A DNA stretch of 60,591 nucleotides, filler included, from Dugesia japonica (taxonomy: Eukaryota): the NCBI GenBank assembly GCA_001938525.1. It is 5 parts of 5 records of this genome, joined end to end, with 100 filler letters (N's around TTAATTAATTAA, not from the genome) between each part and the next. Parts side by side here need not be neighbours in the genome. Positions count along the whole stretch, not along the records: positions 46,656 to 60,591 come from MQRL01626046.1; 4 more parts are not named here. One strand, 5' to 3'. Numbering within the stretch: the stretch's first letter is position 1; every line of letters begins with the position of its first letter. Position numbers and translations under genes: made by a program. Shown here piece after piece: positions 12,221 through 59,555 of this stretch. Under the pieces are notes generated by a model. That model was given only the letters and a program-made list of their open reading frames with translations. It made no database searches and was not told the origin of the DNA.

Positions 12221-12365
12221 TAAATATCTTAAAGATTATTAGAAAACAAAATTATAGACATTTACAATTCCATATTTACATCAAAAATTAAAATTTTAAA
12301 TCTATATGAGATTAAATCATAAATTATATACTATGTTAATATATTATTAAATATAAAATCTCAAC

Positions 12366-18156: not shown

Positions 18157-19335
18157 AGTAGCGAGATAGTAGCGCATCAGAACACCTAGCTCCCCCGCCG
18201 GCAAGCGTTTTGAAAAAAGTGTTCTGAAAATTTGAGCATTTTGATTGGTCGATAAAAATACATGAAAAACTTTTAGATTTTGGTTTGTCGAATTTTTGGT
18301 CGGGGAGTTCAAAAATTTGAATTTTCGGAATTTAATTTTTCTGCGAATTTTTAGGATATGATTTCAGATTAGGTATGTTTTAACTCAGAATTAAATTCTG
18401 TATAAGAATATAATTTTAATGTTTTCAAAACATGTTTGGTTCTCGATACAAGGTTAGTAGCGCATCAGAACACTTGAACTTTGTTTCAAAAATTTCTCAG
18501 TCAATATTGATTGTATGGCTTCGACTTTGATACCATTCGTCTTAGAATTAAAAGTTGAACATATTTCACATAGGGTTTGTTGTACAATTATGCATGGTTC
18601 TCAAAATAATGTATAATTATATAATTAATTATAAATTATAATATAAAAAAATTAATTTTTAAAATATTTTTATACGATTTAACTCAGAATTAAAACATCT
18701 ATAGGAATATAATTTTATCTTTCTCAAAACACGTTCAGTTCTCACTACAAGGATAGTAACGCATCAGAACACTTTGACTTGTTTTATAAGTTTATCAGTT
18801 AAAACTTATCGTATGGCTCTGAAAGTGATAGCATTCGATTTAAAATAAAATTCCAAACATATTTCGTATAGGGTATGTTGAATAATTATACTTACTTTAA
18901 AAGACAGAAAATTACCAGGTACCATGTCCCACATTAGATAAAAAATAATTATTTACTCTAGAAATACTCTAGAAATGATAAGCAAACAAATTTAGTATCG
19001 TTGAACTCGGAATAAAAAACTGAACATATTTAATATAGGGTTTGTAGTTTAAAAATGCTTCGTTCAAGAAATAATATATAATTATATAATTAACTATAAT
19101 TAAAATAATAAAATTTTAAAACTATTTTTAGACCATTAAACTAAGAATTAAAATCTGAACATGTTTCGCATGTTTACTGTAGAAAAATGCGTGGTTCTCG
19201 AAATAATATATAATTAATTATAAATTATAATTAAAATAATAATTTTAAAAATATTTTTAAACCATTAAACTCAGAATTAAAAACTCTATAGGAATATAAT
19301 TTTACTTTTCTTAAAACATGCTCGGTTCTCTCAGA
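18157..19335 (+). mobile_element. Maverick/Polinton-like terminal region with internal subrepeats, homologous to 49572-50340
   Basis: Starts AGTAGCGAGATAG. Internal repeats TAGCGCATCAGAACAC (x3) and AACTCAGAATTAAA. Shares long blocks with 49572-50340 (e.g. CAGGTACCATGTCCCAC at ~18917 and ~50050). Confidence 0.5.
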
Positions 19336-19339
19336 AAGA

Positions 19340-19920
19340 GCTGTGGCTTTAGATGTGGTATTACTATTCACTGTGTGTGTGCTGTGTTATCTAAACTGTA
19401 CTGTGGCTGTGGTATTTCTATATACTATGTTTATGTGTGTGTTATTAAAACTGTACTGTGGCTGTGATGAGAATTTGCTTGTAGGTGACTACAATTTATT
19501 CATGGCTTAATGAAATTAGTGTATAGGTTGTTGGCTTTGATGTCTGTTCAATTGATAAATTAGTAATAAGTCGAATAATTTTGATTCGATTAGGTACTAG
19601 GTGTGGTATTGATTGACTTTACTATATTAAACTGGTTTTAATGTAACACATGGGTTTTACTGTGACCATTAGTTTCACTGTTACACATTAGTTTACTGTA
19701 ACACATAGGCTTTACTGTGACCATCACTTTCACTGCTACACATTGGTTTACTGTATGAAACTGGTTTTATTCTATCACATTGGCTTACTTTACTAATATG
19801 CTTACTCTATCCATTGGTTTCACTGTATCACATTAAGTTTCTGTACTCATTTGCTTAATCTATCCATTAGCTTTGCACATATATAGACACATATAGACTT
19901 TATTGTGTTCATTGGTTAAT
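19340..19920 (+). repeat. Degenerate ~19-20 bp minisatellite (TTTACTGT..CACATTRG)
   Basis: Direct reading of repeated units, e.g. 19655-19760. Confidence 0.6.
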
Positions 19921-20859
19921 GGATTAATTTACTGAATTTCCCTTGAAGAAATTTTTATATAACTTAATAACTATGTAATTTGATTAACTGTCTCAAATAA
20001 TGAAATTCAATATAATATTCCAACACTTCATGGAAACTCTGTACCATTTTTCAAGCACTGCTAAGATATTATAGTCATATATCCTTCATCATCACCATCA
20101 GCCTACATTTCTGCGTGAATCTTTGTCTACAACTCGTCTGCCCCTCTGCTTTATTCATTCCTTCTTTCCTATAAAAATAAAAAAACAAACACTTTTAGTA
20201 ATTTGTAGAAAATTTTCCTTCATTTCTACGCTTTTATGACATCTATATGAATATATGAATAAAACCCTAATGTCCTGGGCATACTTTATTTATAATTTTC
20301 AACAATTTGTTTATTGATTTTATTTAGTTTTATAGGGACTAATATAATTATATAAACAAAGAGTTAAGTAATTATACTGAATATTACATAGCTATAATAA
20401 AAATTCAAAATGTTATTATTTTTAAAAAATTTTTCTAATAAAATTTTATGAAATATTTGGCTATATTGAAATTTTAAAATTTTTTCAACTTTTCTAATAT
20501 TTAATAAAATTAAAACCTATATTGAAATTTTTGAAAACTTATAAAAAAAATCGAAATATTATAATTTGTTTTAACCTTTCTAATAGTAAGATTTTTTCAA
20601 AATTAAATCTGTATTGAAATTTAAAAACCTATAATAAAAATTCAAAATTTTCGAAAATTACTGAATTTTTAACTTACCAAACTTTCTTTTATTGCTATTT
20701 TTTGTCGGAATTTTAATAAATTGAGTTTATTCTCACTTTACTTAACATTGCTTAAACTTAAAATAGTATTTTTAACAACAAACTTATAAATACCAAATAA
20801 TTTCCTGAGATATAAAGGCTTTTTGTTCTTTCAGAAACTTTTATTATGTATTTAATTAT

Positions 20860-21330
20860 TATTTTTCATTTTGTCTGATGATGAAATATATTATAATAAA
20901 GTTTTATCTTAAATGGCGTTATTTATTTTATACTACACAAAGTTTATGAAAATCCTGTAAACGGAATTGGATTTAAAAAATTATTTATTGGATTTGAATG
21001 TTGTATACAGATTGGAAAATTGAATCATGTTTATAATCATGGATAGTACAAAGATACATAATTTTTTAGAATTAACAGCATTAACAGAGAATAATATGCA
21101 AATTTGATATCTACCTCAATACAGTCATATGCTAAACCGAATAGAAAATTTTTTCTCAAATTTTAAGAATTATACAATTCTAAAACAGGCATCAATTGAA
21201 GAAAAACTGAGGCTTTTAATTGAAATGGAATTTGGGACTATTACAGAAACATATTTAAGGGGAAGATTCCAAAAAATGTTGCGACACATTGAAAGATCGA
21301 GAAACAATAATGTTATTAATTTTTTTAAAA
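20860..21330 (+). mobile_element. IS630-Tc1 transposase C-terminal remnant
   Basis: IIMDSTKIH ... YLPQYSHMLNRIENFFS (cf. IMDNAxIH / LPPYSPxLNPIE). Confidence 0.65.
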
Positions 21331-22689
21331 TTTCTATTTATGAATATATATATTATTTTCTAATAAATATTTCAAACATACGATAAATTTTTGGAAAGTA
21401 ACGTTAATAACAATTTTTTTTTAAATTTTAAATTGTTCGATAACCACATTAATTATTATTCTTGATTTCTTATCAAGTTAATATTAACCGTTTAAAAATA
21501 TAATTTAGTAAGTTTTTACTATGTAAAATTAGTTGCATAAAATTAGCTTTTGTATATTTTAGATTTCATTAAAATAAAGTAATAGCTTCGATCAAAGTAA
21601 ATTGTTGTTTTATAGATATTTGTATGTTTTATATTACTTATCGTTGATATTTTTGGTGTATTAACGTATAAATTATAACTGATTTCTTAAGTCGAGACCA
21701 AAGAGGATTAAACAATAAGACTAAAAATAAAATAGTAGATCTAAGCAATTTGAAATAAATTTTGAATGAATTATAAAAATAAATCAAATTCCCAATAATT
21801 CATTGAAATTGTTCAAATCTCAGTATAAGGAAATAATTATTATTTAATAATTTTAGCCAACGGAAGGTGGTCAAATTCTATTTTAATATATAATCAGTTC
21901 TATTTCAAGTATAATAATCTTACTAAGCATGTGTTCTAATAGTAAAATAAATGATGTTTAAAAATATTAATTGTAATTTGCAAAATGAATTACCAATTGA
22001 AGATTTACCTAACACTCAGAAAATATAAAATATTTGTTTTTGTAAATACCGAGTAAAAATAAATAAATAAAAAATTCATAAAAAATCATTAAAATTATTC
22101 ACTAGATTTGTCAATATATTTTAATAAAACTATTTCTTTAAAAATAAACATTCGTTTAATTTTTTAATGAAAATTTTTCACTAAGATAAAAAATTAACCA
22201 AAAACACCTGAAATTTTAATTTATTAAATCAATTCAATTTTTACACAACAAATAAAATTAAACAAATCTTTATAGCTTTATTTAAATCAATTTTTTACTT
22301 TAAATTCGATAAATTAATTATGAATTATTATCAGAATTAGATAATTAGGCATCCCATTTATTAGAATACAAAACGATTTTATCGATTGATTTTTCAAACT
22401 TAATAATAATAATAATTTAAAAATGAATGAGTTTAAATTTGTTGATGTAAATAAAAATGCGAAATAAATTTTGTGAATTTTTTAAAATCCTATATTGTGC
22501 AGATCAACAAGAAATCTATTCAACAGGTTTGTACGATATCATATGTTAAGTGCACATTAACTAGAATACCATAATTCATTTGGGAAATATTCATTTTTGC
22601 TAAATGTGATAAAAAAAATTATTACTTTGATCATTGGTTTATTTGAGATTGTATGATAATCAATTAATAATTCAAACAAAATAGCTCAC

Positions 22690-22905
22690 TTGTGATTAGA
22701 TAAATTCCTGAAAGAAGACTACCAGGCAAAATAGTCAAGGAGGTGTGTGACAATACAAAATAGGTTTCTATGTGTTCACAATGTATACCATAAGTAAAAC
22801 AAATTCCATCAACAAATACCATGCAAATCAATGAGCCTATAACAACAATCCAGCCCCAACTATCATCGATTGATGTAATATGCTGTTCTTGTTTTCTGGT
22901 AACTT
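22690..22905 (-). CDS. Monocarboxylate transporter (SLC16/MCT family) exon, TM1-TM2
   Basis: Clean AG...GT exon of 216 nt: VTRKQEQHITSIDDSWGWIVVIGSLICMVFVDGICFTYGIHCEHIETYF...PGSLLSGIYLIT, matching the MCT DGGWGW...DG...G...GSLL signature. Confidence 0.8.
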
Positions 22906-24049
22906 CTACAACAAAATTAATTTATAACATATGAATCAATATTTAATAAAATATGTCAGACATAAATCAATATTAAAAAATTTATTTTCAATATTTAATG
23001 TGATAAAATATTGTGAATGAACTTGCTTCTCAGTTAAATATTTTCACAATTTTAAGTGATGATAAATAAATAAAAAATACAGTTAATAAATTATGAATAT
23101 TACAAGTTCAAAATTCTAGAAATGAAAATCTAAATTCTAATTTGCAATAGATTTTGAAACGACAAAAATATTTCAACTTTTATTATTGTTGTGAAATGTG
23201 AAAGAAATTATATTAAAATTTTTATTAAACTTTAATATACTATAAAATTATTTCATAAATTTAAATTATTATTTTTAATAATTAAATTTGAAATATCTAA
23301 ATAAAAAATACAGTTAGAATTTTTATTGTAAATATAAAATGTAAAATTATTAGAACAATATTTTTTGAACCAAAAAATAACACAAATTACTATTCAGATA
23401 ACCTAATATTATAAGCAATTTAATAAATAAATAAATAATTAACAAAATCTAATTCAATCAAGCCACTAAAAATTTTTTTATAAAGAAAATTGAAAACGAG
23501 CAAGGTTAATATAAATTTATTCTAAAATACATATTTCAGAACATATTTAATGACAATCGATTCTGGATTATAAATATTTTTCTAAGAACAATTAATAAAT
23601 AAATTGATGTGTTATGCATTTACAATTGAACGTACATATGGGCTGGACATAATTGAAATCGCAAACGACAATCAATCAATTTTAGATGATATCATTAAAC
23701 ACTCAGTTACATTAAATGTCAAGATATTCTTTCTTCCTAAATTTTACATCAAACATAAACTTTGGAATTGGATAAAGATATTATCAATTTTATAATTTAA
23801 TAGTGATAAACTTTATATTTAGATTTCTATACAGAATAATTTAATTATTTTTAATTCGATGTTCCAAGCAGAAATACACCGTAATACTTAATAATTTACA
23901 CTGTTCAGTTAAATATAACAGAGTTTCTGCTGGATATGTTTTGTGTCTTATATAAATGTTGATCTTACACCTTTGAATTGATTAATGGTAAAGGATTAAA
24001 GACAAGGAGCCCATTCAACTATTTAGAATTTGTATCATAAAAAATTTAT

Positions 24050-31355: not shown

Positions 31356-31782
31356 ATGAGTGAAACTGTTCATCCAGCGGTTGCAGACGTAATTTGAAAA
31401 TTATTTTTGCTAGTTGTAATTTTAAGTATTTTATTAGTACAAATCAATTAAAGTTACTGGGTTAAAACCAGGAGAAAAAAAATATTGGTGTGCCTGTGGT
31501 TTAAGTAAAAATCAGCCATGGTGTGATGGTTCACACAAAGATACTGGTATAACTCCATTAGAGTTTGTCGTTCCAGAATTAAAACCAGGAGAAAATGCTG
31601 AAACTAAAGGTTATGGAATGTGTCAATGCAAGCATAGTAAAAACAAGCCGTTTTGTGATGGATCACATAAAAAATTACAACCAATTGTAGCGGATAGAAT
31701 AAAGGAGTGTAGTAAAAACGGCCATCTTGAAAAAGGCCAGAAAAAGTTGTGTACGAATTGCGGCCATGTTCCTGATTTTTAA
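31356..31782 (+). CDS. CISD3: CDGSH iron-sulfur domain protein 3 (MiNT-like, two CDGSH domains); exons 31356-31388 and 31438-31782 (possible further 5' exons)
   Basis: 49-nt GT-AG intron. [11 protein letters not shown]|[40 protein letters not shown]...[21 protein letters not shown]...[10 protein letters not shown]. Missing from the supplied ORF track. Confidence 0.9.
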
Positions 31783-34448: not shown

Positions 34449-35246
34449 TTATTTTGTAAATTTTATTCCATATCCAATTTCTGCACCACCAGATACAGGA
34501 ATGTCCGATCCAGTTATGTGCTTAGCCATTTCTGAAGCTAGAAACATGCATGCATTCGCAACATCAATAGGTTCTCCAAGGTTACCAAGTGGTATTAATT
34601 TTTTCATTTTGTCAATTTCATTTTCATAAATAAGTCCACCTTTTATTCTACAGTTATCAATGGTATTTTGCACAAGTAAAGGCGTATTAATGATACCAGG
34701 AGATATACAGTTTACACGTACTCCATTTTCCGCTTCATCCAAAGCCAATGATTTCGTCATAGCCGTTATAGCCCCTTTAGTAATAGCATATGTCACTGCA
34801 TTCCTTTGACCAATCGAACCAACCTGGCTGCTCATATTAATTATGCATCCGCGGTATTTTCTCAGCATCGGCAATGAGTACTTTGAAAACAAAAAATGGC
34901 TTTTAACGTTAATACTGAACAACAAGTCAAGATCGGAACTAGAAAAATCATCTATTTTCCTATCTTCTGGATGAGTGCCAACGTTATTTATTAAACAATC
35001 TAATTTACCACCGTGCACATTTTCTAAATAGTTAATAACTGATTTTATATCATTCTCTACAGTAACATCACAGAACAAAAACATAATATTTCGCCCATTT
35101 AATTCGTTAACTATTTTGTTACCATTCTTTTCATCATTTGAACAGAAAATAACAGTTGCATTAGTACTAGCAAATTGTTTAACACAAGCAGCACCAATTC
35201 CTGAAGTGCCACCTACTATTAAAATTATTTTGTTATCGAAATTCAT
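34449..35246 (-). CDS. HSD17B14: Short-chain dehydrogenase/reductase, HSD17B14 (L-fucose dehydrogenase)-like, intronless
   Basis: Intact 265-aa ORF: GGTSGIG, NNVGTHP, SS..G.IGQ, YAITK, ALDE...GVRVNCISPG and C-terminal GGAEIGYG typical of HSD17B14. Confidence 0.85.
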   Translation of the reverse strand: MNFDNKIILIVGGTSGIGAACVKQFASTNATVIFCSNDEKNGNKIVNELNGRNIMFLFCDVTVENDIKSVINYLENVHGGKLDCLINNVGTHPEDRKIDDFSSSDLDLLFSINVKSHFLFSKYSLPMLRKYRGCIINMSSQVGSIGQRNAVTYAITKGAITAMTKSLALDEAENGVRVNCISPGIINTPLLVQNTIDNCRIKGGLIYENEIDKMKKLIPLGNLGEPIDVANACMFLASEMAKHITGSDIPVSGGAEIGYGIKFTK

Positions 35247-35712
35247 GATATAAATATAATTAAAAACGAAATAACGTATTTAAAACAATACAAAATTTAT
35301 GTTTATCTCAATTCTTAATGAATAATCATATAAAATCAAAATCCAAAGTCTTAAAAAATTCAATGTATGTAATAACTCTTGTTTCACAAAAAAGCCTAGA
35401 TTTCTAGGTTAAATTGAAAAAACTAATAGAAATGCAATAAAACAAAATATTTCAAAAAATGAATCATTAACAATTTGAAAACATCTATAAATATTTATAA
35501 ATATAAAATTATTTTTAAATAATATAAATTTAAAAAATAGCTTTTACTAAAATTTATGCTAACTTTTAATTTAAATAAAAATATTGTAAATAAAATTCTT
35601 AATTTTGATTGTTTTACTTTAAATGAATCAAAACCATTTGTTGTTTTAAAACAAATTTAAAATAATTATTAAATAATATTTTGTCAATATTATTGTATTT
35701 TTGAAGTCTCAA
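35247..35712. promoter_or_regulatory. Putative bidirectional promoter between divergent HSD17B14-like and AMMECR1 genes
   Basis: 466 bp between head-to-head start codons; no specific motif identified. Confidence 0.4.
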
Positions 35713-44011: not shown

Positions 44012-46411
44012 TCAGAAGCTTAAAATAAATAATGTCCATTTGCCTTGTGCTATTGTCTTGTGATCTGTTCTCACCAAAAGTCTTTTTCGATACAAATATC
44101 GTTTAAAATGGTTACAAAAATAGTAAATGGTCAATAATTCCTTTCTTGTTATACCATATCCTTTTTCATGATCTGATATTGCATGTGACCCATATGCAAT
44201 GACTTCTACTAAACCATTTTCATTTATTTGCGATAAAACTGCTTCAATTGCATCAAAACTCGCATCTGTGTCTAGTACAAACATCTTTTTGATATCTGGG
44301 AAGCTCAATATCGGTGCTTTTGGTAATGTCTCTTTTATCTCATTAAAAGCTTTATCACAATTTTTAGACCACACAAATTTTTTATTGTTACTTCTACATA
44401 GCTCTTCCAAGCTTCTAGCTTTCTTTCAGTAATTATTGATAAATCGTCTATAGTAATTGCATATTCCCAAAAGCTTCTTAAGTTCTTCACACATTTAGGT
44501 CTTCCAAAATTTTTTATCGCTTCAATTTTTGTTGGATCAGTTTGGACTTCATTCTTGTCTATGACTTGTCCAACAAATTTGACTTCTGCTGGCAATAAAT
44601 GAAATTTTTCTGGATTAATTCTCAACCCTGATTGTTGAATTCTTTTAAAAATTAGGTCTAAAATTTTATAGTGCTGCTCTAAAGTTTCTGAAAATATCAA
44701 TATATCATCCCTGTATACCATTGTTCCTCTAAATCTTCCTAATACTTTTGTCATTAGTTCTTGAAACGTTCCAGGTGCTGCAGCTTTACCAAAAATCATT
44801 TTTGTGAAACAATACTGTCCAATTTTTGTAGAAAATTCTGTTTTCTCTTGTGAATCTTTATGTAACGGAACTTGATAATATGCATTACCCAAATCAATAG
44901 TACTAAAATATTTTGCACCACTCAAATCGTCTAGTATTTCCTCTACATTTGGCATCAAAAATGCCTGTTTTTCTGTGATTGCATTCAGTTTTCTGAAATC
45001 TAGACATGATCTATCGTCTTTCCTTTTTTTTCCAACAAATATTAACCGAGTGTTCCATTGAGAATTACACTTCCTAATAATGCCATAGTCAAAAAAATTC
45101 TTGATAGCTTCATCGATATTATTCTCTAAATGCATTGGTTGTCTCCATGGTTTCGTATTTATTGGTTCTTCATTTGTAATTATTTGATGTTCTGCCGATA
45201 TCCCAGTTGTCTGCCATGAATATATCTTTATGAATCATTATAACTTTCTCTAAATTCTCATTTGGCTTGTTAATCAATATTTTTATTNNNNNNNNNNNNN
45301 NNNNNNNNNNNNNNNNNNNNNNNNNNNNNNNNNNNNNCTGTTTTCTCTTGTGAATCTTTATGTAACGGAACTTGATAATATGCATTACACAAATCAATAG
45401 TACTAAAATATTTTGCACCACTCAAATCGTCTAGTATTTCCTCTACATTGGACATCAAAAATGCCTTGTTTTCTGTGATGGCATTCAGTTTTCTAAAATC
45501 TAGACATGATCTATCGTCTTTCCTTTTTATTCCAACAAATATTAACCGAGTGTTCCATTGAGAATTACACTTCCTAATAATGCTATAGTCAAAAAATTTT
45601 TTGATAGCTTCATCGATATTATTCTCTAAATGCATTGGTTGTCTCCATGGTTTCATATTTATTGGTTCTTCATTTGTAATTATTTGATGTTCTGCCGATA
45701 TCCCAGTTGTCTTCCATGAATATATCTTTATGAATCATTATAACTTTCTCTAAATTCTCATTTGGCTTGTTAATCAATATTTTTATTNNTCTCTATACTC
45801 TCTTTTCATCCGTTGTATTACGTCCATACTTTGCTTTTATATTACAAAGACACATTTATTTCTTCAGTTTTTACTTCGTCTTGTATGTCTTCCAATTCTT
45901 TTATTGTTTTAAATACATCGTCTACTTTTTCTATTTTTCCTGATTTGATTTTATGTTTGATCTTTTTGTCGTTGTAACTATTTATTATTAGCTCTTTTGT
46001 TAAGTTCTCATTGTTCCATTTATAAGCCATTAACTTTTCTACCAATCCTTCAATCTTCTTCTTATCGATATTTATATGCTCTCCATTCCTTCGATAATTT
46101 AGAGCTTTCTCCATATCTTTAATCATTGTTGATGGCTTAAAGAAAGCCTTTGTGAATCTTTCTTCAAATCCCAATGATTCGTCTTCATTTTTAAAGATTT
46201 CACACAGTTCTTTATCTATGAAAGCAACTACAAACCAACTCCTTTGGCCTTTCTTTGTTCTGTTTATATTAAAATACTTCGTTGTCGTCAGGATAAATGT
46301 TTCGATATCATCGCCCAATTTGAAAATTCTGGGGTTTATGGCTTCTTTTAGCAAATCTAATGATGCGTTGGTCGCCATATAAGTTAAATTCCAAACCTCA
46401 GAACTCTCCAT
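44012..46411 (-). mobile_element. Gypsy LTR retrotransposon remnant: gag (45842-46411), RT (44335-45135), RNase H (44012-44410); protease deleted; RT start duplicated across a gap
   Basis: CLDFRKLN, FSTIDLGNAYYQV, YRDD (degenerate YLDD), LDTDAS, EL, RTDHK. PBS-like TGGCGACCA at ~46369-46377. Confidence 0.9.
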
Positions 46412-46555
46412 AAATTGTATTTATTATTACAAGTGTATTTGATTAAAATAAAAATTATGTCAAGAATAATTCATAGTATTAAAACAAATAATCTGAGAAA
46501 TTTTTCAATAAAACAATAATTAATAAATATTCTACTTTACATAAAAATTTATAAA

Positions 46556-46655
46556 NNNNNNNNNNNNNNNNNNNNNNNNNNNNNNNNNNNNNNNNNNNNT
46601 TAATTAATTAANNNNNNNNNNNNNNNNNNNNNNNNNNNNNNNNNNNNNNNNNNNN
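46556..46655. other. Artificial contig linker
   Basis: N44-TTAATTAATTAA-N44. Confidence 0.9.
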
Positions 46656-46760
46656 CTGATCAAAAAAAAAATTTGATCCCAAAAATCATACCACCAAAAA
46701 TAGTGCCCTCATCGTAATGTGTTTCCGAATGTGCGGGCAGTGTGCCGCTATCCCCCTACT

Positions 46761-47010
46761 TACATGATCCACGTAAGTGACTTCCTCCTCAGCCCATTTA
46801 CATTTTGTATGTTTTAATTAAATATTTGCTTTTTCTTATCTAGTAAACACCTCTTCCAAATTTCCGAGATGTTCATTGAAAGTTTCTGAGAAGACTAATA
46901 TGTCATCACTGTACACCATAGCGAATGGTACATCTTCTTAAATTTTATTCATAATTCTTTGAAATGTTTCCGGAGCTCCTGTGCCACCAAATGGCATTAG
47001 ATTATAAGTA
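46761..47010 (-). mobile_element. Gypsy RT fragment between two AGTAG-type termini
   Basis: MPFGGTGAPETFQRIMN...VYSDDILVFS...KC. Confidence 0.75.
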
Positions 47011-48749
47011 GGTACATAGTAGTGCCTCAAAACACTAGCAGTTATCACGGACCCCCCGGGGGGGTGGCTCAGAAACACATTACGATTGTGCTAAGATTTT
47101 TTGTGCGATGATTTCTTGGTTAGTTTTTTTTCTAAGATTTTGTAATCAAAGATTTTTTGATCCTGGTGGTGAAGTGTGTGTGTACTTTTAAATTTTAAAA
47201 TTTGTGTGTGTTTGGCTTGCTAAGGCGGTTTTTAAACAGTAGGTCAAGTTGAGTGTGCGTGGTTGTGTGTGTGTGTGTGTGAAAGAAGGGTTTTGGACTC
47301 GAGGAGGAGTTGGAGATCTTGGAAATAATTTTTTGGAGTTTTTAAAATTTGGTTGTTGTTGGACAAAAATTTGGTGGATATACTGTCTAAAGAACTTATG
47401 GTGTTGGATGGATGGATTTGGCTAGAAGTGTGGTAGCGCATCAGATCAGTCATTTGAGTTATCGTGGGTGTGTTTTTTGGGAGGCTGTAAGTTTCTATGT
47501 GGTAGATGTAATTTGTTGGTTGATGTGTTGTTGGAGAGGTAATGGGATGGAAAAGATTTTGTATGTCAAAAGTGCTTTGATATTTTATTTTAAGGGCTTG
47601 AATTTGATTGGTTGATTTTTGTAAGTAGTATAAGTGTGTTAAAAAAATTTTTCGGGAGGTGGACAAAGGTATGTGTGGAATGACAATTAATTATCGGATT
47701 TTTTAAGATTTATTGCAAATATTTTAGGCTGGAGTGTATGACGTCATAATCTTTTGAAATCTTTATTTTAGTTAAAATGATGAATTTATTGAAAGTTTTG
47801 ACTTGCATACCTATTGCATTTATTTTTTAAAAAATCAATAAAATTCCCAGGCACGTGTTGCTGTGTTGCATTCTTGATTTTTTTATATTATTTCCAGATA
47901 TAGGTCAGTCTAAAATTAACATGATAAAATATTCAAATAAAATTTTTTCTTTACAAGATGATAAAAAACATATAATTTTTTCATAAAAAACATATTAGTT
48001 ATGTAATTTGCTATAAAAAATATATTACTTTTGACAGATTTTTAAAAACAACATATTACTAGTGACAATTTTCTTTAAAAAACATATTAGTAGTAGCAAT
48101 TTTTCTATAAAAATCTCACTAGTCATGCATTTTTTAATAAAAATATATTAGTCATGCAATATTTGTTATAATAAACATATTAATTGAGAGCATTTCTTAG
48201 AACAAAATGATAAAAACATAGAACTGTTTTCATAAAAATCATAATTTCATGAAACCTTTTCATATATAACTAATAAGTCTATATAAAAAAACTTTTATAG
48301 GGTTTATGAGTATATTATTTGTATTATTTACATAGCAGAGTAATATTTATATAGCAAATCTATATTTCAAGGTTTATGAGTATAGTATTTACATATTAAC
48401 CGTGTAAAAAGAGGTCGCCATGTAAAATGCATGTTCATGAAATTAAAGCCTTATTTATTTACTAATTATAAACAAATAAAAGAAAACAATTATCCAATAA
48501 AACATTTATTAATATAGCATTTATTAATTAAACCTTTTTTTCTCATATTCTTGAGTCATCTTCAAAAAATTTTTCTTTTAAAATTTCATAATGGTTCTTG
48601 TTTTCATTGAACGGGAAATCCGATTGAAGTTCTATGTTGAAATTGTTCATAACTTGAAACATGTCTATTCCGGTTGTCTGCAATAAATGATTGAAATATT
48701 CATTCATCATCAACTGCATATATTCATGAAGAAGTTCTAAATTTCTAGG

Positions 48750-49480
48750 TTAAAGGATGCTATTACAATTTGTATTAGAGCTTGATCAGGAAGATAAATA
48801 GGGTTGGTCTCAAAATTGATTTTGAAACCAACATCGACATTAGATTGAAGTTGAAATTCTTGGCAGCTTTAGCGTTTGTTCCAATCGATGATGCGAAGAA
48901 CGTTTTTGATCATCTGGCAACTACATTTCCTGATGAACTTCCCGACCAAAAAATTCGACCAACCAAATCGAAATCGAAAAGCTTTTCATGAATTTTTATC
49001 GACCAATCAAAATGCTTCAATTTTCAAAATACTTGGTAGCGAGAAGGGAGGGATTTTCCAATGCGATACTATTTACCTACTAACATGCATTGAAGGTTAA
49101 GGAGGTAGAGATCCTCAGTTTCCAATCAGGGTTTGGAATCATCACGAGACAGCAACAGAAGGGTAACCTAAGACTACAAACTGTTGCTAGGGCTTCCATA
49201 ATGTACTCAATGCTTTACTGTAATGTAGTAATCCCAGTATTTGGTATTTGTTTGATGGTCTTTAAACGTACATTAACTGTCATAGGCTTACTCTAGCCAA
49301 TGCACAAACATGTTGTCCAGAATTAAAAGGATAGAAATATCAATATCTCCAAGGGATAGTTTCAAACATTGTGCAGCGATATCAAGTGAAACAGGATAAG
49401 ATGAAATATTTGAGAAGATTAGCCAACTTGCAGTAGTAACAAGGTCTGATAAAACAGTAATTACTATATAATGTAATTCA
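48750..49480 (+). mobile_element. MULE/Mutator transposase C-terminal remnant
   Basis: GCYY...LIRKINRVGLK...LAALAFVP; later WNHHE...PKTTNCC*GFHNVLN...PSIW, typical of MULE transposases. Confidence 0.75.
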
Positions 49481-50845
49481 GAGTGTCAAATCTTCTAATT
49501 ATTTACATTTTTTATGAAAAATGTTGATTTTTAAGTATATTTTATGTTTTACTTTTTTTACTTATTTTATTAGTAGATAGATATGTCAGCACGGAAACAG
49601 TAACCCCCTTCGCCTCCGTCGACTGTTTTTGACAAGTTGGCTGTTTTGTCATTTTTCTCACGTGGGATTTTGATTGGACATAACGAATACATGAAAAATC
49701 TTTTTGAATTCCGGTTGGAATGTTCGAATTTTCATCGGTAAGATTGAATATCGAAAATTTATTTTTTAAATTTTTCGGTCAAATTTTTTCGTCTGGTTTC
49801 AAATCTGCTATCGATTGTCTTAGAATTAAAAGGTGAACATTTTGTATATGATTTCCTTATGAATATTCTTGGTTCTCTCAGAAAAGGTATGTCAACACAG
49901 GAACACTTTGACTTGTTTTTTAAATTTCTTGATCAAAACTTTTCGTGTCACTTTGTAAATAGTACTATTCGATTCAGAATAAAACTCTAAACATATTTTG
50001 TAAAAGGTTTGTTGTAAAAATATGCTTTGTTCAAAAGATAGAAAATGGTCAGGTACCATGTCCCACCTTGGATAAAAAATTATTAACTCTGAAAATACAT
50101 ATGATAATCAAACAAGTTTGATATCGTTGAACTCAGAATAAAAAACTGAACATATTTCATAAAGGGTTTGTAGTATAAAAATGTTTCGTTCAAGAAATAA
50201 TATATATAATTATATAATTAATTATAAATTATAACTATAATTAGATTAATAATAATATTTTTAAAATAGTTTTTTAAACAATTCAACTCAGAAATAAAAA
50301 CTCTATAGAAATTCAATTTTAATTTTCTTAAAACAATTTTTGGTCTTAGTGAAAATAAAAACATTATTGATATAACAAGATTTATTTCAATAAATAGTTA
50401 ATCTTAAAATATAAATGCATTTAATTATTGAAATAATAATTAATAAAATACTATATGTTATCGCTTTGATCAATGGGTTATCATGAATCGTTAATTTTTC
50501 ACGTAAAATATCAGTCAAGTCAACTTCTTTCTTTACTTAAACTGGTTTCCTGGTAACTGAATAATTATTATCGATATACTCTACCATACTATCTATAATT
50601 TTTATCAATATTCATTGTCAATAAGTTGAACAATTTACTTTTCGTTTATATTATTTAAAATCAAAATCAATTAATATACACACACATACATAGAAATAAA
50701 ATATTTTCATGACATCATAGGGCCAAAAGTTATACAAAAGGTAATTAATCATACATATTACATAATCTAAAGCATTAAAAATCATGTACACACATAAATA
50801 GTTACTTTATAAACCAAGTCAATATACAATATTTCATTAATAAAA

Positions 50846-51656
50846 ATGCAAGAATCGAAGGATACTGCAGCAACAATTTGTTTCTAATCGAAAAAGACCT
50901 ACTTCGACAAAACAATTACTTATTCGTTTCAAGTAACATTTACTTTTATAAGTACAATTATTAATTTTCATTTAGAAACAAGTAAATATACTCAAATCGA
51001 AATATACCTTGCAGTTAACGAACTTTAACAAGGCTGATCAAACGGCTATTAACGATATTCTATCAAAAATTGACAATACCATGTTAATAAAAGATAGTGC
51101 TTTCATTGATTCAAAGAAAATAATCATCAAAAATTGTGTGATAATAGTAGATATACTAGGATATAAGAAAATTGGTGATGTCACAAAACCTATTTGCGAA
51201 TTTAAAAAGGCTGAAATATGCATGCAACAAGTTATCCTTACCAAAGACAATGTTATGACAATTGTAATTGATTCTGGAACGCCACGAGATTATTACCAGT
51301 TCTAGATAAGGTTTTTCCTAAAGCCGATTATTTATGCATTCCAAGTATAATTTGAAACTATTATTACTGTTATTATTATAATTTAGGAACCGGTTATACT
51401 AAAAAGATGTCCATTCAGTTTGCAAATATTGGAAATCAGTATAGAGGATAAGACAATAATCAAAAATCTTTTATCAAGAATTGATAATATGTTGAAAATA
51501 GATAATGCATCATTCATAAATGATTAGGAATCGAATGAAAATAGCTATCCAAGTGATAAAAACTACTTGATAACTGCAATATTCAAAGGATTCAAAAGAT
51601 ACAACGACACAATTAGTCCTGTTTGGAAGATAAAAACTTTTCAAGATTTTGATTGA
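50846..51656 (+). pseudogene. Unknown internally duplicated two-domain gene (or tandem gene pair) with introns 50933-50975 and 51345-51386
   Basis: Phase-0 GT-AG introns after TYSFQ and IYAFQ. Repeats LQLTNFNKADQTAINDILSKIDNTMLIKDSAFID and LQILEISIEDKTIIKNLLSRIDNMLKIDNASFIND align. Three in-frame stops. Confidence 0.6.
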
Positions 51657-51858
51657 TAAATGTTTTAAACCCTATTTTGTTTATTTGTTTTCATTTAGTT
51701 ATNNNNNNNNNNNNNNNNNNNNNNNNNNNNNNNNNNNNNNNNNNNNNNNNNNCACTACTTTGTTAATTTTTATTAATGGTATAAATTAAAGCACAATTCG
51801 AAATAGCAAGATTTTGTAATATCACATTTTATTGTTGTTTTCATGCATTTGTATTGCA

Positions 51859-52045
51859 CTAGTTTTGTATTTTCTGGATTAAAATTTTCAAATCTGAAAT
51901 TATATTATAAACTTGATTTTGATAATATAAACTCTTGAGACCGAGTATTACAACTTTTCCACTAGCAAATACATTAACACAAGTAGGATTGTAGTTAGTA
52001 AGTCTCAATGCTGAAAATGATTCGGGTTCATACACACACTTGGTT
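51859..52045 (-). pseudogene. Divergent TATA-box binding protein (TBP)-like C-terminal repeat, 5'-truncated
   Basis: YEPESFSALRLTNYNPTCVNVFASGKVVILGLK versus canonical TBP repeat 2 [34 protein letters not shown]. Confidence 0.7.
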
Positions 52046-52049
52046 ATTC

Positions 52050-52880
52050 TTGCTGCCATTTAGAATTATGTGATTTTGGTCCCCTCTTCATCTTCTTTAT
52101 TTTTTCTATTTTTTCTTCTATTTTATGCCATTCCTGTTTTTCTTCGGTTGGTGGCAATGTTCGTTGGCCTTGGTATTCATTAAACACGGCTTCCTTTAGA
52201 TGAGCTAATTGACGACCTTGGTAATCAACTTTGTATATCAGGGTTGATGTACCTGTATGACATGATCCATCTGCTGTCTTGCAGTATGATCTCCCTTTCA
52301 TAGTCAAGTCTTTGCGTCGAAGAATGGTTCATATTCTTTGAGTTCTACTGTATAAGTCTCGATCGCTACGGCAAATTACCATACTTTACCTCTTATGATA
52401 TATGTTCCGTATTCGCAGTTGCCCTTATGTGAAGATATGCTACCCGCTGCTTATATCAGTTGGTCAATTACATGGCCTTTTTTGTTGAGGACTTGAGCTC
52501 CGGGTTTGATAGTAATTTTACCTGTTGTGAATCCTTCTTCACATTGCTGTCCTGTCAAGTGTACAGGATGTTTTACTGTCCCTGGATTAATTATCGATGT
52601 GTAACTGTGGTAACCGCAATGAAATATGAATGTCTTCACTGTCACTATGCATTCGTGTATTTGAGACTTATATTAATCTGATTCCTGATACAAATGGTAA
52701 ACTGAGTTATTTCGGAGTGAGATTTTTTCTGGATTTGCATCTGGATATTCCTCTGTGTCTATTAATGAGAATATCTGTTTTCCCACTTGCATACCATCAC
52801 AATAATATACCAATATGGCTTCACTTCTGCCCATCATTAAGAATAACAAAAATATCGAAGTGGTTAAAGCTTGCCAAGAA
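52050..52880 (-). pseudogene. Envelope glycoprotein, chuvirus-G-like (class III fusogen), N-terminal ~270 aa
   Basis: Signal peptide SIFLLFLMMGRSEA|ILVYYCDG...FSLIDTEE...LYQ...ECIVTVKTFIFHCGYHSYTSI...QQCEEGFTTG...AGSISSHKGNCEYG...W..AV...YCKTADGSCHTG. The Cys/motif spacing matches the chuvirus-like glycoprotein pattern (GYDC...SLL...LLQ...C...YCGMHSH...C...G.C...W.NVV...C...G.C) as I recall it. Confidence 0.65.
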
Positions 52881-52979: not shown

Positions 52980-53397
52980 TTAAGGCATATTGCCTCAATA
53001 AACTTTTTCCAGCCCCCGTGTTGCTTTATTAGCGGTACAATTTTATTCTGCATCAGATCTACTATGGGTAGCTTACTGAGAATGAAGTTTTTTGACGGCT
53101 TACTTCTGGTTATAGATAAATGTGTTTGATTGATCAAATATGCGATAGATACTAATATCCTTCTTTTGTTGGCTCATCTTGTAATAATTCATCTAATACT
53201 CCCCTCAGGTTATCTCTCGTACCATAGCTGGTACCTTTATTAGCGGGAAATTTCTTGATGGCCGATTCCAATTCCTTTACCAATGGTCTGAGACTGTCAG
53301 ATAGCTGGAATTTCCCAATCCTTATTTTCAGTTCCGGATATAACATTAATAACAATTGTCGGATCACTATTTCTGTTGGCATATCGTCCTCTGCCAA
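52980..53397 (-). pseudogene. Bcl-2-family domain split by a 1-nt frameshift at ~53162
   Basis: BH3-like LSDSLRPLVKELE. BH1-like LRGVLDELLQDEPTK(G)RILVSIAY, restored by one G (AAA G[G]A AGG ATA TTA). BH2-like IVPLIKQHGGWKKFIEAI. Confidence 0.75.
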
Positions 53398-55873
53398 ATT
53401 TCCGCTATATTATTCTTGTGACACTGCTGCTAATCTCTTGGTTTGGTGGTTTACCGATGTTGCCAATCTTTTTTCTTTTAACGCCTCTTCCTCTTCCGGT
53501 TGTCCCAGAGGTTTTGTTATAGGCCTACCTCTACTTTTAGGTTCAGTAATTGTTTCCGCATCCACTCTTGTTAGTGCTGGTTTTGGTGGTGCATCTTCTT
53601 CCGTTTCTGTTGGGTTTTTCATTTCTAATGGGTGCTTTTGATCCATTAATTCATCCATTACCGATGAGGGAAATTCCTTTGCTATTTTGCTCAATATTGG
53701 TGACAATAGCTGTTCCTCTAACACTGATTTTGTTGTGATTATTGGTAGGTCGTCGATGTTCTGTGTTTTCTGGTTCTCTTTTATCTGTTCCTTGATACCC
53801 GTCAATACTCCGTTTACGTATAATTCGGTTATTTCCTCCATTCGATCCTCTAAATCTGGTGGCTGGGTTGTCTGTGGCTCCTCCTCTACATCTAACTCGC
53901 AGATTTCTCCTGACTTTGCATGGCATTGAAATATGTGTTTATCTTCGTCATCGTTTTCAACCAATTTACCATTTATGTATAAAGGTTCCATTGTTAATCC
54001 ACACTCTTACCACTTGTCGGTAACGGCATCCATTAAATCCATCATGTTTATTCCTTGTGGCTTTAATCGACTTTACTTAGTCATGTCCTGCTTATTCTTG
54101 CCTATATTCAAGTATAATGTATAATCCTGAATGTTGGTAGCCGCCGATATTTCCTCAGCATATTTCTGTCTAATTGTGAGCCATTGATTTTCGATTTCTT
54201 CTGGTATTTCCATCCCATCGTATATATCGTAAATTCTATTCATTATCATCCAATAGGTTTCTCAGGGTAACTTTTCTTTATCCGCTTGTACTCTGTTAAC
54301 CATTTCCTCTACTTTACGCATCGCTACTACTTCTCTTGATGCCATTTGCCGCATCCTTATCATTCTCTTCTCTCCAACCGTTGTTTGAGTATGTTTTCTC
54401 TCCTCTTCTGTCAGCTTATCTTTCTTTCCCAATACTATAGAAAGTATTTTTATCTTGATTGGTTCTATCTCTTGTTTATATAGGTGTTCCATTTCTCCCA
54501 TGATTTCTAGTGCAGATCTTCCGTTTTTTGTTACCCACACATCATAATCTATACCAGGATGTTTATCTAATATTATTAATTCGATTTCCTCTCCTGGTTT
54601 CACTCCGTAATCATATAAATGATTTTTTCTCGCGCTGAAATCTACTAGAGCACTTGGGATGCATACACATTTATCTTCTAAATACGGATAGCCTGCCTGA
54701 CCCAAGGGCCGATTCCAAGTCTTCTACCAATAATCCATTGAGCGTTAATTTCATATTTCCTTCTGGGTTGTATAACCATAATTGGTAGTCTGACAATCCC
54801 ATGTTTGATATTAACCAATCAAAGTGTACTAGCAACCTCTCTGTCTATTTGCTCTCGAAATTGGTAACCAATTTTATAACCTCTAGTAACTCCTTCTATC
54901 GATTAGTTAATTTGAAATATACTTCTTTCTTAATTGTATAGTAAAGTTTCTGGGCGCCTGTTAGTATCTCATCGATTCGAGCTAATGATAATCGTGATGC
55001 TTCCTTTTGTTCTACCTTAGGATAGTTCATCAATCTCACTTCCTTGAGTCGTTGTTTCTGGTTTTCGTGAGACTTTGCGGGAATTATTTCCTTAAGGAAT
55101 GTTTCTTCTAGTTTATGATATAACCCGATAGTATCTATTTCCTGGAATACTATTTGTGGTCTTTATACCAAACCCCAATTTATTAGTTTAATTAATGTTG
55201 CTTCATGGGGGCGCATTCCGTAGTAAATTAAACTTTTATCATCTGGGAGAATGTTGATCCCTATATTACCGATTTGCAGTCTGTGACAGTTCCGATTTCC
55301 GGTCCATTGATGCTGATCATTAAATAGGGGTAATTTAAAAAATGAATTTACCGTTATTCATTTGATGCCATCCACTTCTCTCCGTTCTATTTCATTAATG
55401 GCTTCTTTTAAGTGTCGTAATCCCTTTGGTGCTAATTTTAATCGTTTTGGGATGAATTCAGGGTTATTATGCCATACACATTGTATTTCAAATCCATAAT
55501 CTTTTAACGCGGTTTCCTTGTATAATTCCGCAATAAAATCCGATATTGTCTTCTACCAGTTTGCTTTTACTTTTGCGTGTACTTGTGGATGTTGGTACAA
55601 CCTGAGCAACTGATACATCACTGGTCTTTTCCCAGTAATGATTGTTGATGCTTCTATTGTTTTGTAAATAATCTCATTAGTCCATTCGAATTCTGGTGAC
55701 GTAATCAGTATTCGGTTCCTGGTGTCTTCCATCATCGTAACTTCCGTGGTTTCATCATATTGGTTATAGATTTGTCTATGAGTTCTAATCATATTACACT
55801 GATTTTTGTGTTGTTCGTTGAGTAAGTTTCTTTTTGCTCACCTCGCTTGTTGCACCTGTAAATCTTGGTTTTG

Positions 55874-56860
55874 CTATTTAAGCCAGTGGTTTTCTTGTTG
55901 GACTTTATTATATACATTGTCATAAGTGTTCTGCTGTACTAAGTTGACCTGTTCTTTATTTTGATTTACTTGTTGCCTTAATCTCTCGTTTTCATGCATC
56001 AAGTTATCCAGATTCGTGTTTGAATTTCGATTGTAACTTGTTTGGTTTCCATTTGGACATTCCTTCGCCATATGGCCTCTTCTGTTACATTTATAACACA
56101 CGGTTGCATTTTTAAGGAAACAAGTTTCTACATTATTATGTGCAAAACCGATTATTGTTGTTGTTGCCTTTGCTTCTGCATTCTCTTGCTATGTGTCTTC
56201 TTCTCCCGCAAGCATTACATTGTATATCTCGGTTGTTTTGCCAATTATTTCGTTGCAAGTTGAATACTCCGCCATTTTCTCCGGGGTAATTTGGCTTAGT
56301 ATTTCTATTACTCAGTTCCTGCACTAGCGACAGAGTTTTCATCATAGACTGGGTATTTGGTATGAAATCCGATATTCGCGGAATGGTTTCTTCAGTCTGA
56401 GCTTCTACATTAAATACTCGTTCTGTTGGCCGATCGGACGCAATTCGCAATATTGCTAATGAATCATGTAACGTTTCTGGTCTACCTAATTTTACAATAG
56501 GTTTTGCGGTTTCGTCTTCCGTTTAGAAAGATGGCTAGTACTTGGCTATCTTCCCATTTTTCTCCTAATGCCAATTTTACTCTTCTCTTGAGTTCCATTA
56601 TATAAGCTTGGTAGGTTTCACCACGTTGTTGTTTCCGGTGAGTAAATTGTTCAAGGTCCTGGCCTGTTAATTTTAGATTTTGAAAATTATCAGTTAAAAT
56701 TTTCTCTACATTTTCCCATCTATCGGGAATACTTTCCATTCCATTGGTGTTATCCCAGAATACGGTTTTAACGACTCTCTTCGCTTCATCGTCCCATCCG
56801 CAGGTTTTGACATACATTTCAAAATTTTGTAAATATTCGTCCAATTTCTCCGGTATTCAG
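55874..56860 (-). pseudogene. Gag: capsid-like region plus CCHC zinc knuckles
   Basis: DEYLQNFEMYVKTCGWDD...RKQQRGETYQAYIMELKR...FLNG; CNACGRRRHIAREC; a partly deleted middle knuckle FC..HNNVETC; CYKCNRRGHMAKEC. Confidence 0.85.
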
Positions 56861-57639
56861 CTAAAATATTCGCCTTCGAATTTTATTTTCCATTCCGGGA
56901 GCTGTGTTTCGGTTTTTGTTGAATTAGTTTTTTCTTTATCGGGATGGAATTTTATTTCAAAATTTTTGGTAACTGGTGGGTTTGTTTAGTTTCCTTGGTT
57001 TTCCTTCGTCTTCTGTGCTTCCTTGGTTACCACTTGCTACNTCTGTTAATTCTATTTCTTTTGATGTATAACTTAGTCCACTTAGTCGGTTTCTATCCGT
57101 TTAAGGGTTACTGAGTGTTCGCCTCTGGATTATTTGATTTTCTTTGTCACTTGTGCTACTGTTGGAACTGATGGTCTCTACGGTTTGTTTATTGGGATCT
57201 GATTTTCCGAGGACACAGATGTCTCCTTCCTGGTCTAAATATAGTGATGTTTTGATTTTCTTCCTCGAGGACTATTTGCGTCTGACTTTTAAAATTGAAC
57301 TTGGTGTAGGTAATCCGTTTGTGCTAGCTCGGGTAGCTGGTTTCCTGTTATCAGAGTGGGAATCTATTTTATTACAGTCCGGCTTGTTAGTTGCCTATTG
57401 CGCTTCCTTAATTTCTTCCTTTTAAATTCCTTAATTAAGTATTCCTTTATTTTTCCTTAATCAAGTCTTTCTTTTAACTGCTAGGTTATCTCTTCCTAAA
57501 TGTGGGAGTACCCATTTTTTCATAGTATAGGCAAACTCTTCTGTTTTCCTTCGTTTTATTCAATGTAATGTAATGTATTCAATGTAATGTAATTCATGGG
57601 GGAGTACCGAGAGTTTTCTTATGGATCGGGGCCCCGTTT

Positions 57640-58230
57640 GAAGAACCCTTTTTCGTGCAGGCGAACGCTTCCGGCTTCTCTTCCTTTATATTCTTCCTCT
57701 AATCAGGCTTCCTTTAGTGTGCTTCTTTTCTTACGTAGGCTTCCTTTAATATGCTTCCTTAATTTTGCTTCTTTCCTCACGTAGACTTCCTTAAATATAC
57801 TTCCTCCTTGTCAGGCTTCCTTTAATATTCTTCCTTGGTGTTTCCTTCCATACGCAGGCTTCCTTAAATATGCGCGCAGAAACATATCCACTATATACCT
57901 AATTATTTCTTCAATTATGGTCCTTAGACAACTGTTGTGGCTACTTTTTACGAAGGTGATAAATCTTCTGATTGCAATTTACCAGTTGGGGATCTATATT
58001 TTCCATAGCTGTGTTCATAGTAAGCATTACTGGATATTCTTCCTAATTTCTTCCTGTTAATCTTCCTTTTATTATATCTTCCTTTAATATCTTCCTTAGT
58101 TTTCCTCCTGATTAGCTTCCTTTGATTTCTTTCTAATTATCTTCCTTCCTGATTAGCTTACTTTAATTTATCTTCCTTTACTTTATCTTCCTGTAATTTA
58201 TCTTCCTGTAGTTTATCCTCCTTCCTGGTT
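57640..58230. repeat. Degenerate short repeats (GGCTTCCTT / ATCTTCCT) in the element leader
   Basis: Many (C)TTCCT(T) units with irregular 12-35 bp spacing. Confidence 0.6.
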
Positions 58231-58836
58231 ATGAATTTCCATGATGATCTCCATGGATATCTCAACATGATCTCTGAAAATATAAAATAACGATTTCTTA
58301 TATATTTTACTTCCTATTTATAACCTGATTTCTATTCTGTTTCATTTACCCTAAATATATTATTTTAATATCATAATAAAACTTCCGAAATTTCTTTCTG
58401 ATTCATTTATTCTCAATATAATACTTTTTGAATTTAAAATTTTAATAATTTATTTATTCAGATATTAATCGTATATTTATTCATTAAAAATGTTAATAAG
58501 ATTTGACATCATATCTTTCTTGATTGATTTATTACACGTCCCTAAAGGTGTTTGTTTCCTGAAAGATTTTGTCAAATCCCGGCTGAACCCACAAAATTCT
58601 TGTTTTGGTTCCACTTGATGGATGNNNNNNNNNNNNNNNNNNNNNNNAGAGGATCCCCCTTCAAGAATTTAATCTAAATTCCCTATTTAGATTTTCGGTA
58701 TAGAGCGGTTGACCTTCAACATTTACTTGAGGTACACGCTCGTATACCTTTAATTCGGGTTCGTTACTTTTCCCTATATCCTAATTAATGACTAAATTAA
58801 TAACGCGTTAAATAACGAAAATTTATTTCTACATAT

Positions 58837-59142
58837 TTACATAAAATCGAGCGCACCCGGGTCTAACCACTGGGTTGGCTCGGGTGGTGTGAAGTCAAAA
58901 GCGGCTTCATCATCCTCGCTGTTCCAGCGAGTCCACGTTTCCTGCTCTAAGCGATTAGATAAATCGGCAATATATTGCTGCAGAAACTCTATCTTATGAT
59001 TCAGGATCTGTTTTGATTGTTCGGCCAGCTCTCCTTGTTTTTTGAATATTAAATCGAGTTTTTTGATCAATCGGTTACGCTGAGTTAAATTTCTCAATAA
59101 AGCTCTCTCATTCTGACGCTTGATATGCCTTTCTAACGGCAA
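58837..59142 (-). CDS. Small coiled-coil ORF just inside the putative 5' LTR, function unknown
   Basis: Uninterrupted 101 codons (TTG start), heptad-like LNHKIEFLQQYIADLSNRLEQ and an acidic/aromatic tail. Confidence 0.4.
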   Translation of the reverse strand: MPLERHIKRQNERALLRNLTQRNRLIKKLDLIFKKQGELAEQSKQILNHKIEFLQQYIADLSNRLEQETWTRWNSEDDEAAFDFTPPEPTQWLDPGALDFM

Positions 59143-59167
59143 CTTTTAGATCAAGCGATCACACCGA

Positions 59168-59555
59168 TGTAAGCTACTTGGGAGTCGAATACGAGGCACT
59201 AAACAATAATCCTAAAACTCTTGAATTTCACGGTGAGCTTCTTAGACTCACCTAACAATATATAATCTTTTATAAATTTAATAAAGTGATAACTGCTGCC
59301 CTGATTTTAATACATATATGTTTAATGATCGTATCCTTAAAATTATTAATGACATTATAAGATGAACAGTATTGTCTATCCTTGAAGTAATATTTAGTAT
59401 AATAAAAGAGAACATTTGTTGAATATGATAACGATGATAATGTCGAAGATTAAAGTCGATAAATAAAAGCTGATCATTAGGATGTAAGAAACCAGAGAGA
59501 GTATAATCGGTAAAAGATTTCTAACGAAATGCATATGAGCATGCACTCTATTACA
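59168..59555 (-). repeat. Putative LTR (388 bp, TGTAA...TTACA)
   Basis: 5-bp inverted termini TGTAA/TTACA upstream of the Gag-containing region. The following sequence TCGGTGTGATCG is only weakly PBS-like, and no second LTR is in the window. Confidence 0.45.

Follow-up and report, generated by a model that had tools for sequence, protein, structure and literature searches.

Structure of the locus

The window, by which we mean the whole 60,591-nucleotide stretch of AT-rich DNA that was analysed, contained a decayed retroelement on its minus strand. From the break in env to the upstream end of the element, the following features were recognised.

52047..52163, minus strand: charged tail past the break, not recognisably env, at the junction to another high-copy repeat
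52164..52306, minus strand: env ectodomain piece 2, from the frameshift to the truncation (tblastn, frame -2)
52307..52816, minus strand: env ectodomain piece 1, a class III/gB-type start with three stops (PF24664)
52817..52867, minus strand: hydrophobic env leader, likely an internal polyprotein signal, with a predicted cut after SEA
52994..53179, minus strand: tentative Bcl-2-like C-terminal half with a BH2-like GGW at 53017 (profile of four relatives)
53180..55873, minus strand: degraded coding sequence, some 2.7 kb long, that separates Gag from the Bcl-2-like piece (long ORF pieces)
55874..56856, minus strand: Ty3/gypsy Gag, spread over three frames and comprising a capsid domain and a pair of CCHC zinc knuckles (Pfam)
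56857..59223, minus strand: upstream high-copy stretch, likely the 5′ part of the element (depth, tandem repeats)

The env remnant (52867-52164) consisted of the hydrophobic leader and about 217 ectodomain residues. The env motifs quoted in an earlier note on this DNA were all present on the minus strand: ILVYYCDG at 52816, the predicted mature env start, ECIVTVK at 52654, HCGYHS at 52621, CEEG at 52543, GNCEYG at 52423 and, in frame after the frameshift, YCKTADGSC at 52286. So was the hydrophobic stretch ending in SEA, at 52867-52817. Translation of 52915-52313, with X at the stops, gave a 201-residue piece in which this stretch was accompanied by the cysteine pattern. In-frame stops were found at 52675, 52453 and 52378. 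The same note had placed a frameshift at about 52308, and this was confirmed, since env relatives switched from frame -3 to frame -2 at about 52307 when they were compared with the window by tblastn. The second piece (52306-52164) was 33-48% identical to the relatives.

Most HSPs of the relatives stopped at 52164-52167; four tblastn rows reached 52137-52140 and the profile match reached 52113. As similarity ended at about 52164, most of 52163-52050 is not env, and the extent to 52050 proposed earlier had to be shortened. The frame following the frameshift remained open across the break to 52047, and 52047..52163 matched no Pfam family.

Only positions 51-305 of a 726-position env profile were covered by the remnant, and the rest of the profile had no significant match anywhere in the window. 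The gene had four breaks (three stops and the frameshift) and was cut off after about 217 of about 540 ectodomain residues, leaving its front 40% or so. A C-terminal transmembrane anchor and a complete ectodomain were absent from the window copy in hydrophobic-segment and profile scans. This copy, truncated and lacking a membrane anchor, is therefore filed as a remnant and not as a working fusogen. It is dead, with a truncated env and with stops and frameshifts throughout.

Classification of the envelope protein

The Pfam family PF24664 (Monjiviricetes_fusion) matched env piece 1 with E=1.5e-24 and 86.4 bits, against a cut-off of 27, over model positions 6-182 of 653. The profile, built from 52 relatives, scored 161.6 bits (positions 51-243) and 14.3 bits (positions 242-305) on the two env pieces, the latter with an iE of 2e-6, and at most 0.7 bits in each of 20 shuffles of the 10-kb region. 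Since the 52 relatives had themselves been found using the window env piece, the Pfam match is the independent test. A single-sequence PDB search with the env piece returned five chance rows (E of at least 4).

The model of the window env (AF2, pLDDT 86.8) had a helix at residues 10-27, corresponding to the leader. In BFVD it best matched the glycoproteins of chu-like viruses, xinmoviruses and their relatives, with E values from 1e-8 to 1e-5 and 14-24% identity. In a structure search of the PDB the top 11 rows were herpesvirus gB, at E of at least 0.04, and no match was found at E<=0.001. VIA-align placed residues 82-201 of the window model on residues 157-282 of HSV gB (98 aligned, Z 4.3, rmsd 4.7); no alignment of the model reached Z>=5 (maximum 4.4) and secretins tied with gB. 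The gB residues that env piece 1 aligned with, weakly, belong to the gB fusion domain region.

A Foldseek comparison showed a gB-like fold in P0004, a near-full-length relative (pLDDT 79.2), and left the window piece alone short of the E<=0.001 threshold in the PDB. P0004 matched HSV-1 gB with E=8.9e-15 (TM-score 0.33-0.40, 9-13% identity), and all the Foldseek matches listed for it were gB. The profile of 52 relatives retrieved 23 rows from the PDB, every one gB and every one weak (E 0.15-1.5), and an Atlas ranking for env placed PF24664 clusters first, followed by rhabdovirus G and gB.

Sequence and models together support the assignment of the window env to the Monjiviricetes-type class III fusion glycoproteins. 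The chuvirus-type class III identity put forward in the earlier note is thus upheld by PF24664, by the chu-like matches in BFVD and by the gB-like fold of a relative. Chu-like virus and xinmovirus glycoproteins and herpesvirus gB share the family and fold of the window env. The nearest relatives, at 30-46% identity, were retroelement envs, compared with 14-24% for the chuvirus rows in BFVD.

Related elements and phylogeny

A full HMMER scan with the window env gave 108 matches at E<=0.001, many of them long, the best being 30-46% identical to it. A word-index search for longer homologues yielded one match among 449 candidates. Labels were attached to three of the 20 relatives looked up and none was informative. 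An aspartyl protease followed env in the same ORF in eight of the 22 relatives scanned, clearly in seven (P0007, P0009, P0010, P0012, P0013, P0018 and P0062) and weakly in one (P0030, E=0.0018). Four of these 22 continued to RT, RNase H and integrase, and P0111 was a fifth. The closest relatives carry env inside a single polyprotein, between Gag and PR-RT-RH-IN, and not in a 3′ ORF preceding an LTR.

Several relatives had unusual structures. P0111 (4,844 aa) combined env with ankyrin, RT, integrase and a number of protease-like stretches; it also had C2H2 matches and, past the integrase, about 1,500 residues that included several hydrophobic segments. P0111, P0009 and P0012 had between two and seven stretches resembling aspartyl protease. 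In P0006 a knuckle, a weak ubiquitin-like match and a weak Bcl-2 match preceded env. P0010 is a 2,627-aa env-PR-RT-RH-IN polyprotein held at NCBI under a Flavobacteriaceae metagenome-assembled genome, and this record is likely to be animal DNA contaminating a bacterial assembly. P0016 had a mitochondrial ribosomal L47 domain fused to an env fragment and P0059 had a whole env fused to an RNase H domain. We take these two to be chimeric predictions or rearranged copies.

A quick tree was made with 77 rows, from the 108 matches and the window, about 31 short matches being left out. The window env fell in a clade of 26 rows (SH-aLRT 99) that held all 13 env-internal rows, two of which (P0003 and P0014) received that label on the strength of an N-terminal extension alone. 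Both rows bearing DUF5641, which we take to be a marker of the BEL/Pao integrase end, fell outside this clade, and in these two relatives env came after DUF5641.

The leader and its polyprotein context

From the stop at 52918 to the start of its hydrophobic stretch the window env had no ATG, the first Met being at 52837, near the end of that stretch. All 14 long relatives inspected had, within a longer ORF, a similar hydrophobic stretch immediately ahead of the N-terminal motif of env. The window leader was below the hydropathy threshold of 1.7. Given the lack of an upstream ATG and the in-ORF position of the stretch in the relatives, the leader is best read as an internal signal, and is likely to be that of a polyprotein. 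In this it differs from the viral glycoproteins, which are free genes with their own start. A transmembrane anchor in long relatives, which the earlier note had expected, was borne out in all 11 that were scanned: a candidate hydrophobic segment followed the env start motif at a distance of 533-549 residues.

The Bcl-2-like piece and the window env were in the same frame, with three stops between them, which could mark a true ORF boundary. In tblastn, P0004 and P0007 aligned continuously, in one frame, from 53161 through env.

Upstream and flanking regions

A Gypsy-like multi-knuckle Gag had been reported upstream of env and we recovered it. Retrotrans_gag (PF03732) matched at 56856-56485 (E=3.3e-6) and knuckles were found at 56219 and 56098 (zf-CCHC, E=5e-7; zf-CCHC_5, E=4.9e-5). 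The Bcl-2 domain of the earlier note fared less well. The piece at 52994..53179 was helical and matched, with an iE of 1.8e-4, a profile built from the region preceding env in four relatives, two of which matched Pfam Bcl-2 below the cut-off (E=9.6e-4 and 0.055). The window Bcl-2-like pieces had no direct match to Pfam Bcl-2 or to PDB Bcl-2. PDB sequence searches with P0024, P0006 and the window piece returned no Bcl-2 row, and P0006 matched the dArc2 capsid (E=0.007). Four of 14 relatives had a GGW that preceded env by 51-81 residues and the other 10 had none; the GGW of the window preceded env by 69. Because a direct match is lacking, the Bcl-2 label is weak, if plausible.

The middle region (53180..55873), searched in three frames, matched nothing in Pfam at E<=1 and showed no similarity to 15 long relatives. 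Its best ESM Atlas score was 0.89, for an unnamed match. MATH, BIR, SUMO/ubiquitin-like and ankyrin domains were not found in the window. Farther upstream, within 56857..59223, tandem repeats occupied 57557-58223 and a short ORF lay at 58837-59145. Repeat searches of the window revealed no LTR pair flanking the element, though one need not be visible in a truncated copy. With env-bearing polyproteins as queries, no pol similarity was detected at 47007-52163, and neither PR nor RT nor integrase lies next to env.

Another, distinct Ty3/gypsy element, also decayed, was located at 44012-47006 on the minus strand and had RT and RNase H (Pfam E 6e-28 and 2e-28). It was considered as the missing pol and rejected, as it is separated from the break by at least 5 kb, comes with a gag-like ORF of its own and is only 33-35% identical over the RT of env-bearing polyproteins. 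The ORF concerned, at 45842-46420, matched no Pfam family and is presumably gag-like. A 450-bp stretch repeated at 97% on either side of an N gap (44838-45287 and 45338-45787) is probably an assembly artefact.

Copy number, composition and expression

The 52-59 kb stretch had a GC content of 36-38%, against 20-31% elsewhere, and a strong AT skew. Summed contig depth over env was 2,400-6,600 in two contig sets of the same organism. It was 400-48,000 over 56857-59223, and fell to 18 and then below 10 beyond 59224 (below 10 beyond 59548). Depths in the thousands, against fewer than 10 in the flank, indicate a high-copy repeat family. The element was found in seven runs, all from one organism.

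Directly past the env break, over 50800-52095, depth was 12,000-24,000. At 52162 six contigs of run X3 diverged from the window, and the contig piece that was listed ended at 52173; past the point where the window copy breaks, other copies appear to continue into different sequence. The repeat at 50800-52095 may be the 3′ region of the element or another repeat. It had RNA reads on both strands in run X9 and contained an ORF of 109 aa (50976-51305, plus strand) with no Pfam family. RNA depth over env was 0-0.25 in two runs, read to 25% and 6%, and came mostly from reads less than 90% alike. None of the listed holders of the element was an RNA run.

Other features of the window

Two host genes were recognised. 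An intronless short-chain dehydrogenase lay at 34449-35279 (minus strand; nearest named animal proteins L-fucose dehydrogenase/17-beta-HSD14-like, 46-47%) and a CDGSH iron-sulfur (CISD3-like) coding stretch at 31438-31782 (plus strand; 52% to bivalve proteins). One of the two also had unnamed matches at 78% and 67%. The nearest named animals of these genes were molluscs and a brachiopod (46-52%), from which the non-arthropod host suggested earlier seems correct. Taken with this, the AT-richness of the DNA and the likeness of the env to Schmidtea elements make a planarian the likely host. The ORF pieces at 3301-4524, 10959-11885 and 13857-14843 (minus strand) are presumably DNA transposase remains (hAT-like, Tc1/IS630-like and mariner-like). 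A dispersed repeat with internal sub-repeats was present in two copies, 78% alike, at 18767-19156 and 49901-50302.

Comparison with known elements

The giant Ty3/gypsy Burro elements of planarians are described as encoding a single polyprotein, in which retrotrans_gag is followed by two or three CCHC knuckles, accessory domains, BCL2, env and PR-RT-RH-IN, and have been proposed to be proviruses (PMC6431247). Their env was reported to match mononegavirus fusion glycoproteins (Arkhipova and Yushenova 2019, PMC6431247) and was tied, via HHpred, to gypsy Env and F-type proteins (PMC6431247). The window element shares with Burro/GYPSM1 the order of Gag, knuckles, accessory region, a tentative BCL2-like piece and env. 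It is also Burro-like in its tandem repeats, its high copy number and its decayed copies with stops and frameshifts. It differs in that Burro has PR-RT-RH-IN and LTRs, for a total of about 30 kb, whereas the window copy is without pol or an LTR pair, and in that the MATH, SUMO, BIR and ankyrin domains of Burro were not detected in it. Unlike the F-type link drawn for Burro env in PMC6431247, the env folds obtained here point to class III. The likeness to Burro1-4 drawn here is one of published layout. Burro1 has been studied in planarians (PMC13465017, PMC8532177), and its BIR/RING region is reported to protect stem cells (cited in PMC13465017).

Flatworm, nematode and bryozoan errantiviruses are described as having only gB-type env, in the order GAG-ENV-POL (Chary and Hayashi, PMC13524379). 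Nine intact flatworm elements are given there, six from Schmidtea, two from Prostheceraeus and one from Macrostomum, and the entry mechanism of gB-type errantiviruses is called unknown (PMC13524379, section 9). Although the main text of that paper mentions neither Burro nor Bcl-2, we infer that its Schmidtea elements include Burros. In its supplement of 229 fusogen sequences, an 11-aa and a 7-aa motif of the window env each occurred in one sequence, in both cases Smed_errantivirus_5, and a 5-aa motif occurred three times, always in Schmidtea. A hand count against Smed_errantivirus_5, ungapped over 133 positions with three X omitted, gave 60 of 130 residues identical (46%); the other rows were compared with the window env by motif only. 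Smed_errantivirus_5 carries its gB-type env between gag and pol, and domain I-II aligns to the window env. At 46% identity the window element is another family or comes from another host species. The published flatworm errantiviruses are intact, whereas the window copy is dead.

The third comparison is with Anakin, mosquito BEL/Pao elements with a chuvirus glycoprotein (Dezordi 2020, PMC7642597). Their env belongs to the same glycoprotein family (PF24664) as the window env. However, Anakin has a BEL/Pao backbone, whereas the window element has a PF03732 Gag and its nearest relatives have env before the protease. The Anakin-type layout, BEL/Pao with env after pol, is not that of the window element.

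We conclude with considerable confidence that the locus holds a broken class III env, of the gB/chuvirus G type, in a decayed high-copy Ty3/gypsy element, likely a Burro-like planarian GAG-ENV-POL element. As pol and LTRs are missing from the window copy, it is filed as a Burro-like remnant and not named Burro. The window element is descended from the published planarian elements that carry a gB-type env in GAG-ENV-POL order, and it works as they do.

Proposed mechanism in intact relatives

The domain order and the hydrophobic segments that underlie the following proposal were observed in the relatives; cleavage, budding, fusion and anti-apoptotic action are steps proposed from sequence for intact relatives. 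One long ORF would be translated, with Gag and the accessory domains remaining in the cytosol. The internal hydrophobic signal would enter the ER membrane and be cut by signal peptidase, and this cut would leave the Gag/Bcl-2-like part tail-anchored. The ectodomain of about 540 residues would pass into the lumen and trimerise, and the transmembrane helix after it would stop transfer. Protease, RT, RNase H and integrase would then lie in the cytosol and be freed by the aspartyl protease. Particles would bud with the fusogen and could pass between cells, and the Bcl-2-like domain would possibly delay death of the producing cell. The window copy is capable of none of these steps.

Alternative explanations

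A more ambitious reading is an undescribed high-copy Burro-like lineage in which the 2.7 kb encode novel accessory proteins, unbroken copies still make enveloped particles by means of a class III fusogen, and the env signal doubles as a membrane anchor for Gag/Bcl-2. We consider this unlikely. If true, it would be a living flatworm retrovirus whose fusogen is cut from one Gag-Bcl2-Env-Pol polyprotein.

It is quite improbable that the family is an amplified, non-autonomous, internally deleted derivative, or that the env piece has been domesticated as a secreted fragment of the ectodomain and blocks related elements. The open frame from the frameshift to 52047 and the high copy number on both sides of the junction would fit such a form. 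However, the env piece contains three stops and a frameshift, the six contigs departing at 52162 and the listed piece ending at 52173 speak against it, and so does the near absence of matching RNA over env.

The earlier note raised an independent env capture, and the notion has two parts. Independence from the mosquito Anakin capture follows from the tree, where the two BEL/Pao-linked envs fall outside the env clade, and that part stands. The other part, that a gypsy element of this lineage newly acquired a chuvirus glycoprotein, could also appeal to the best named structural matches, which are chu-like virus glycoproteins. Yet the window env nests among the 13 env-internal retroelement rows with a support of 99, and its 46% identity to a published Schmidtea element contrasts with 14-24% to viral proteins. 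From this nesting and identity, the capture predates the window element and is already published: the planarian Gag-BCL2-env-pol layout appeared in 2019 (PMC6431247) and gB-type flatworm elements are described in PMC13524379. We therefore regard a new capture as very improbable.

A stand-alone endogenous viral glycoprotein fragment beside unrelated gag remains might explain why no pol adjoins and why three stops separate the Bcl-2-like piece from env, but it is hardly credible given the continuous one-frame alignment of P0004 and P0007 from 53161 through env, the lack of a start codon before the leader, and the GC content, AT skew and high copy number shared by the whole 52-59 kb.

Implications

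The Burro-like remnant is a new but ordinary example, as envelope-carrying elements of this layout have already been described. The questions for the group are whether errantiviruses with a gB-type env can fuse membranes and pass from cell to cell (PMC13524379), and what role their anti-apoptotic cargo plays; a truncated, stop-ridden copy makes these no more testable than do the intact published elements. What the window element contributes is one decayed family to a known group, together with support for placing the env of planarian retroelements in class III, in preference to its earlier link with F-type proteins.
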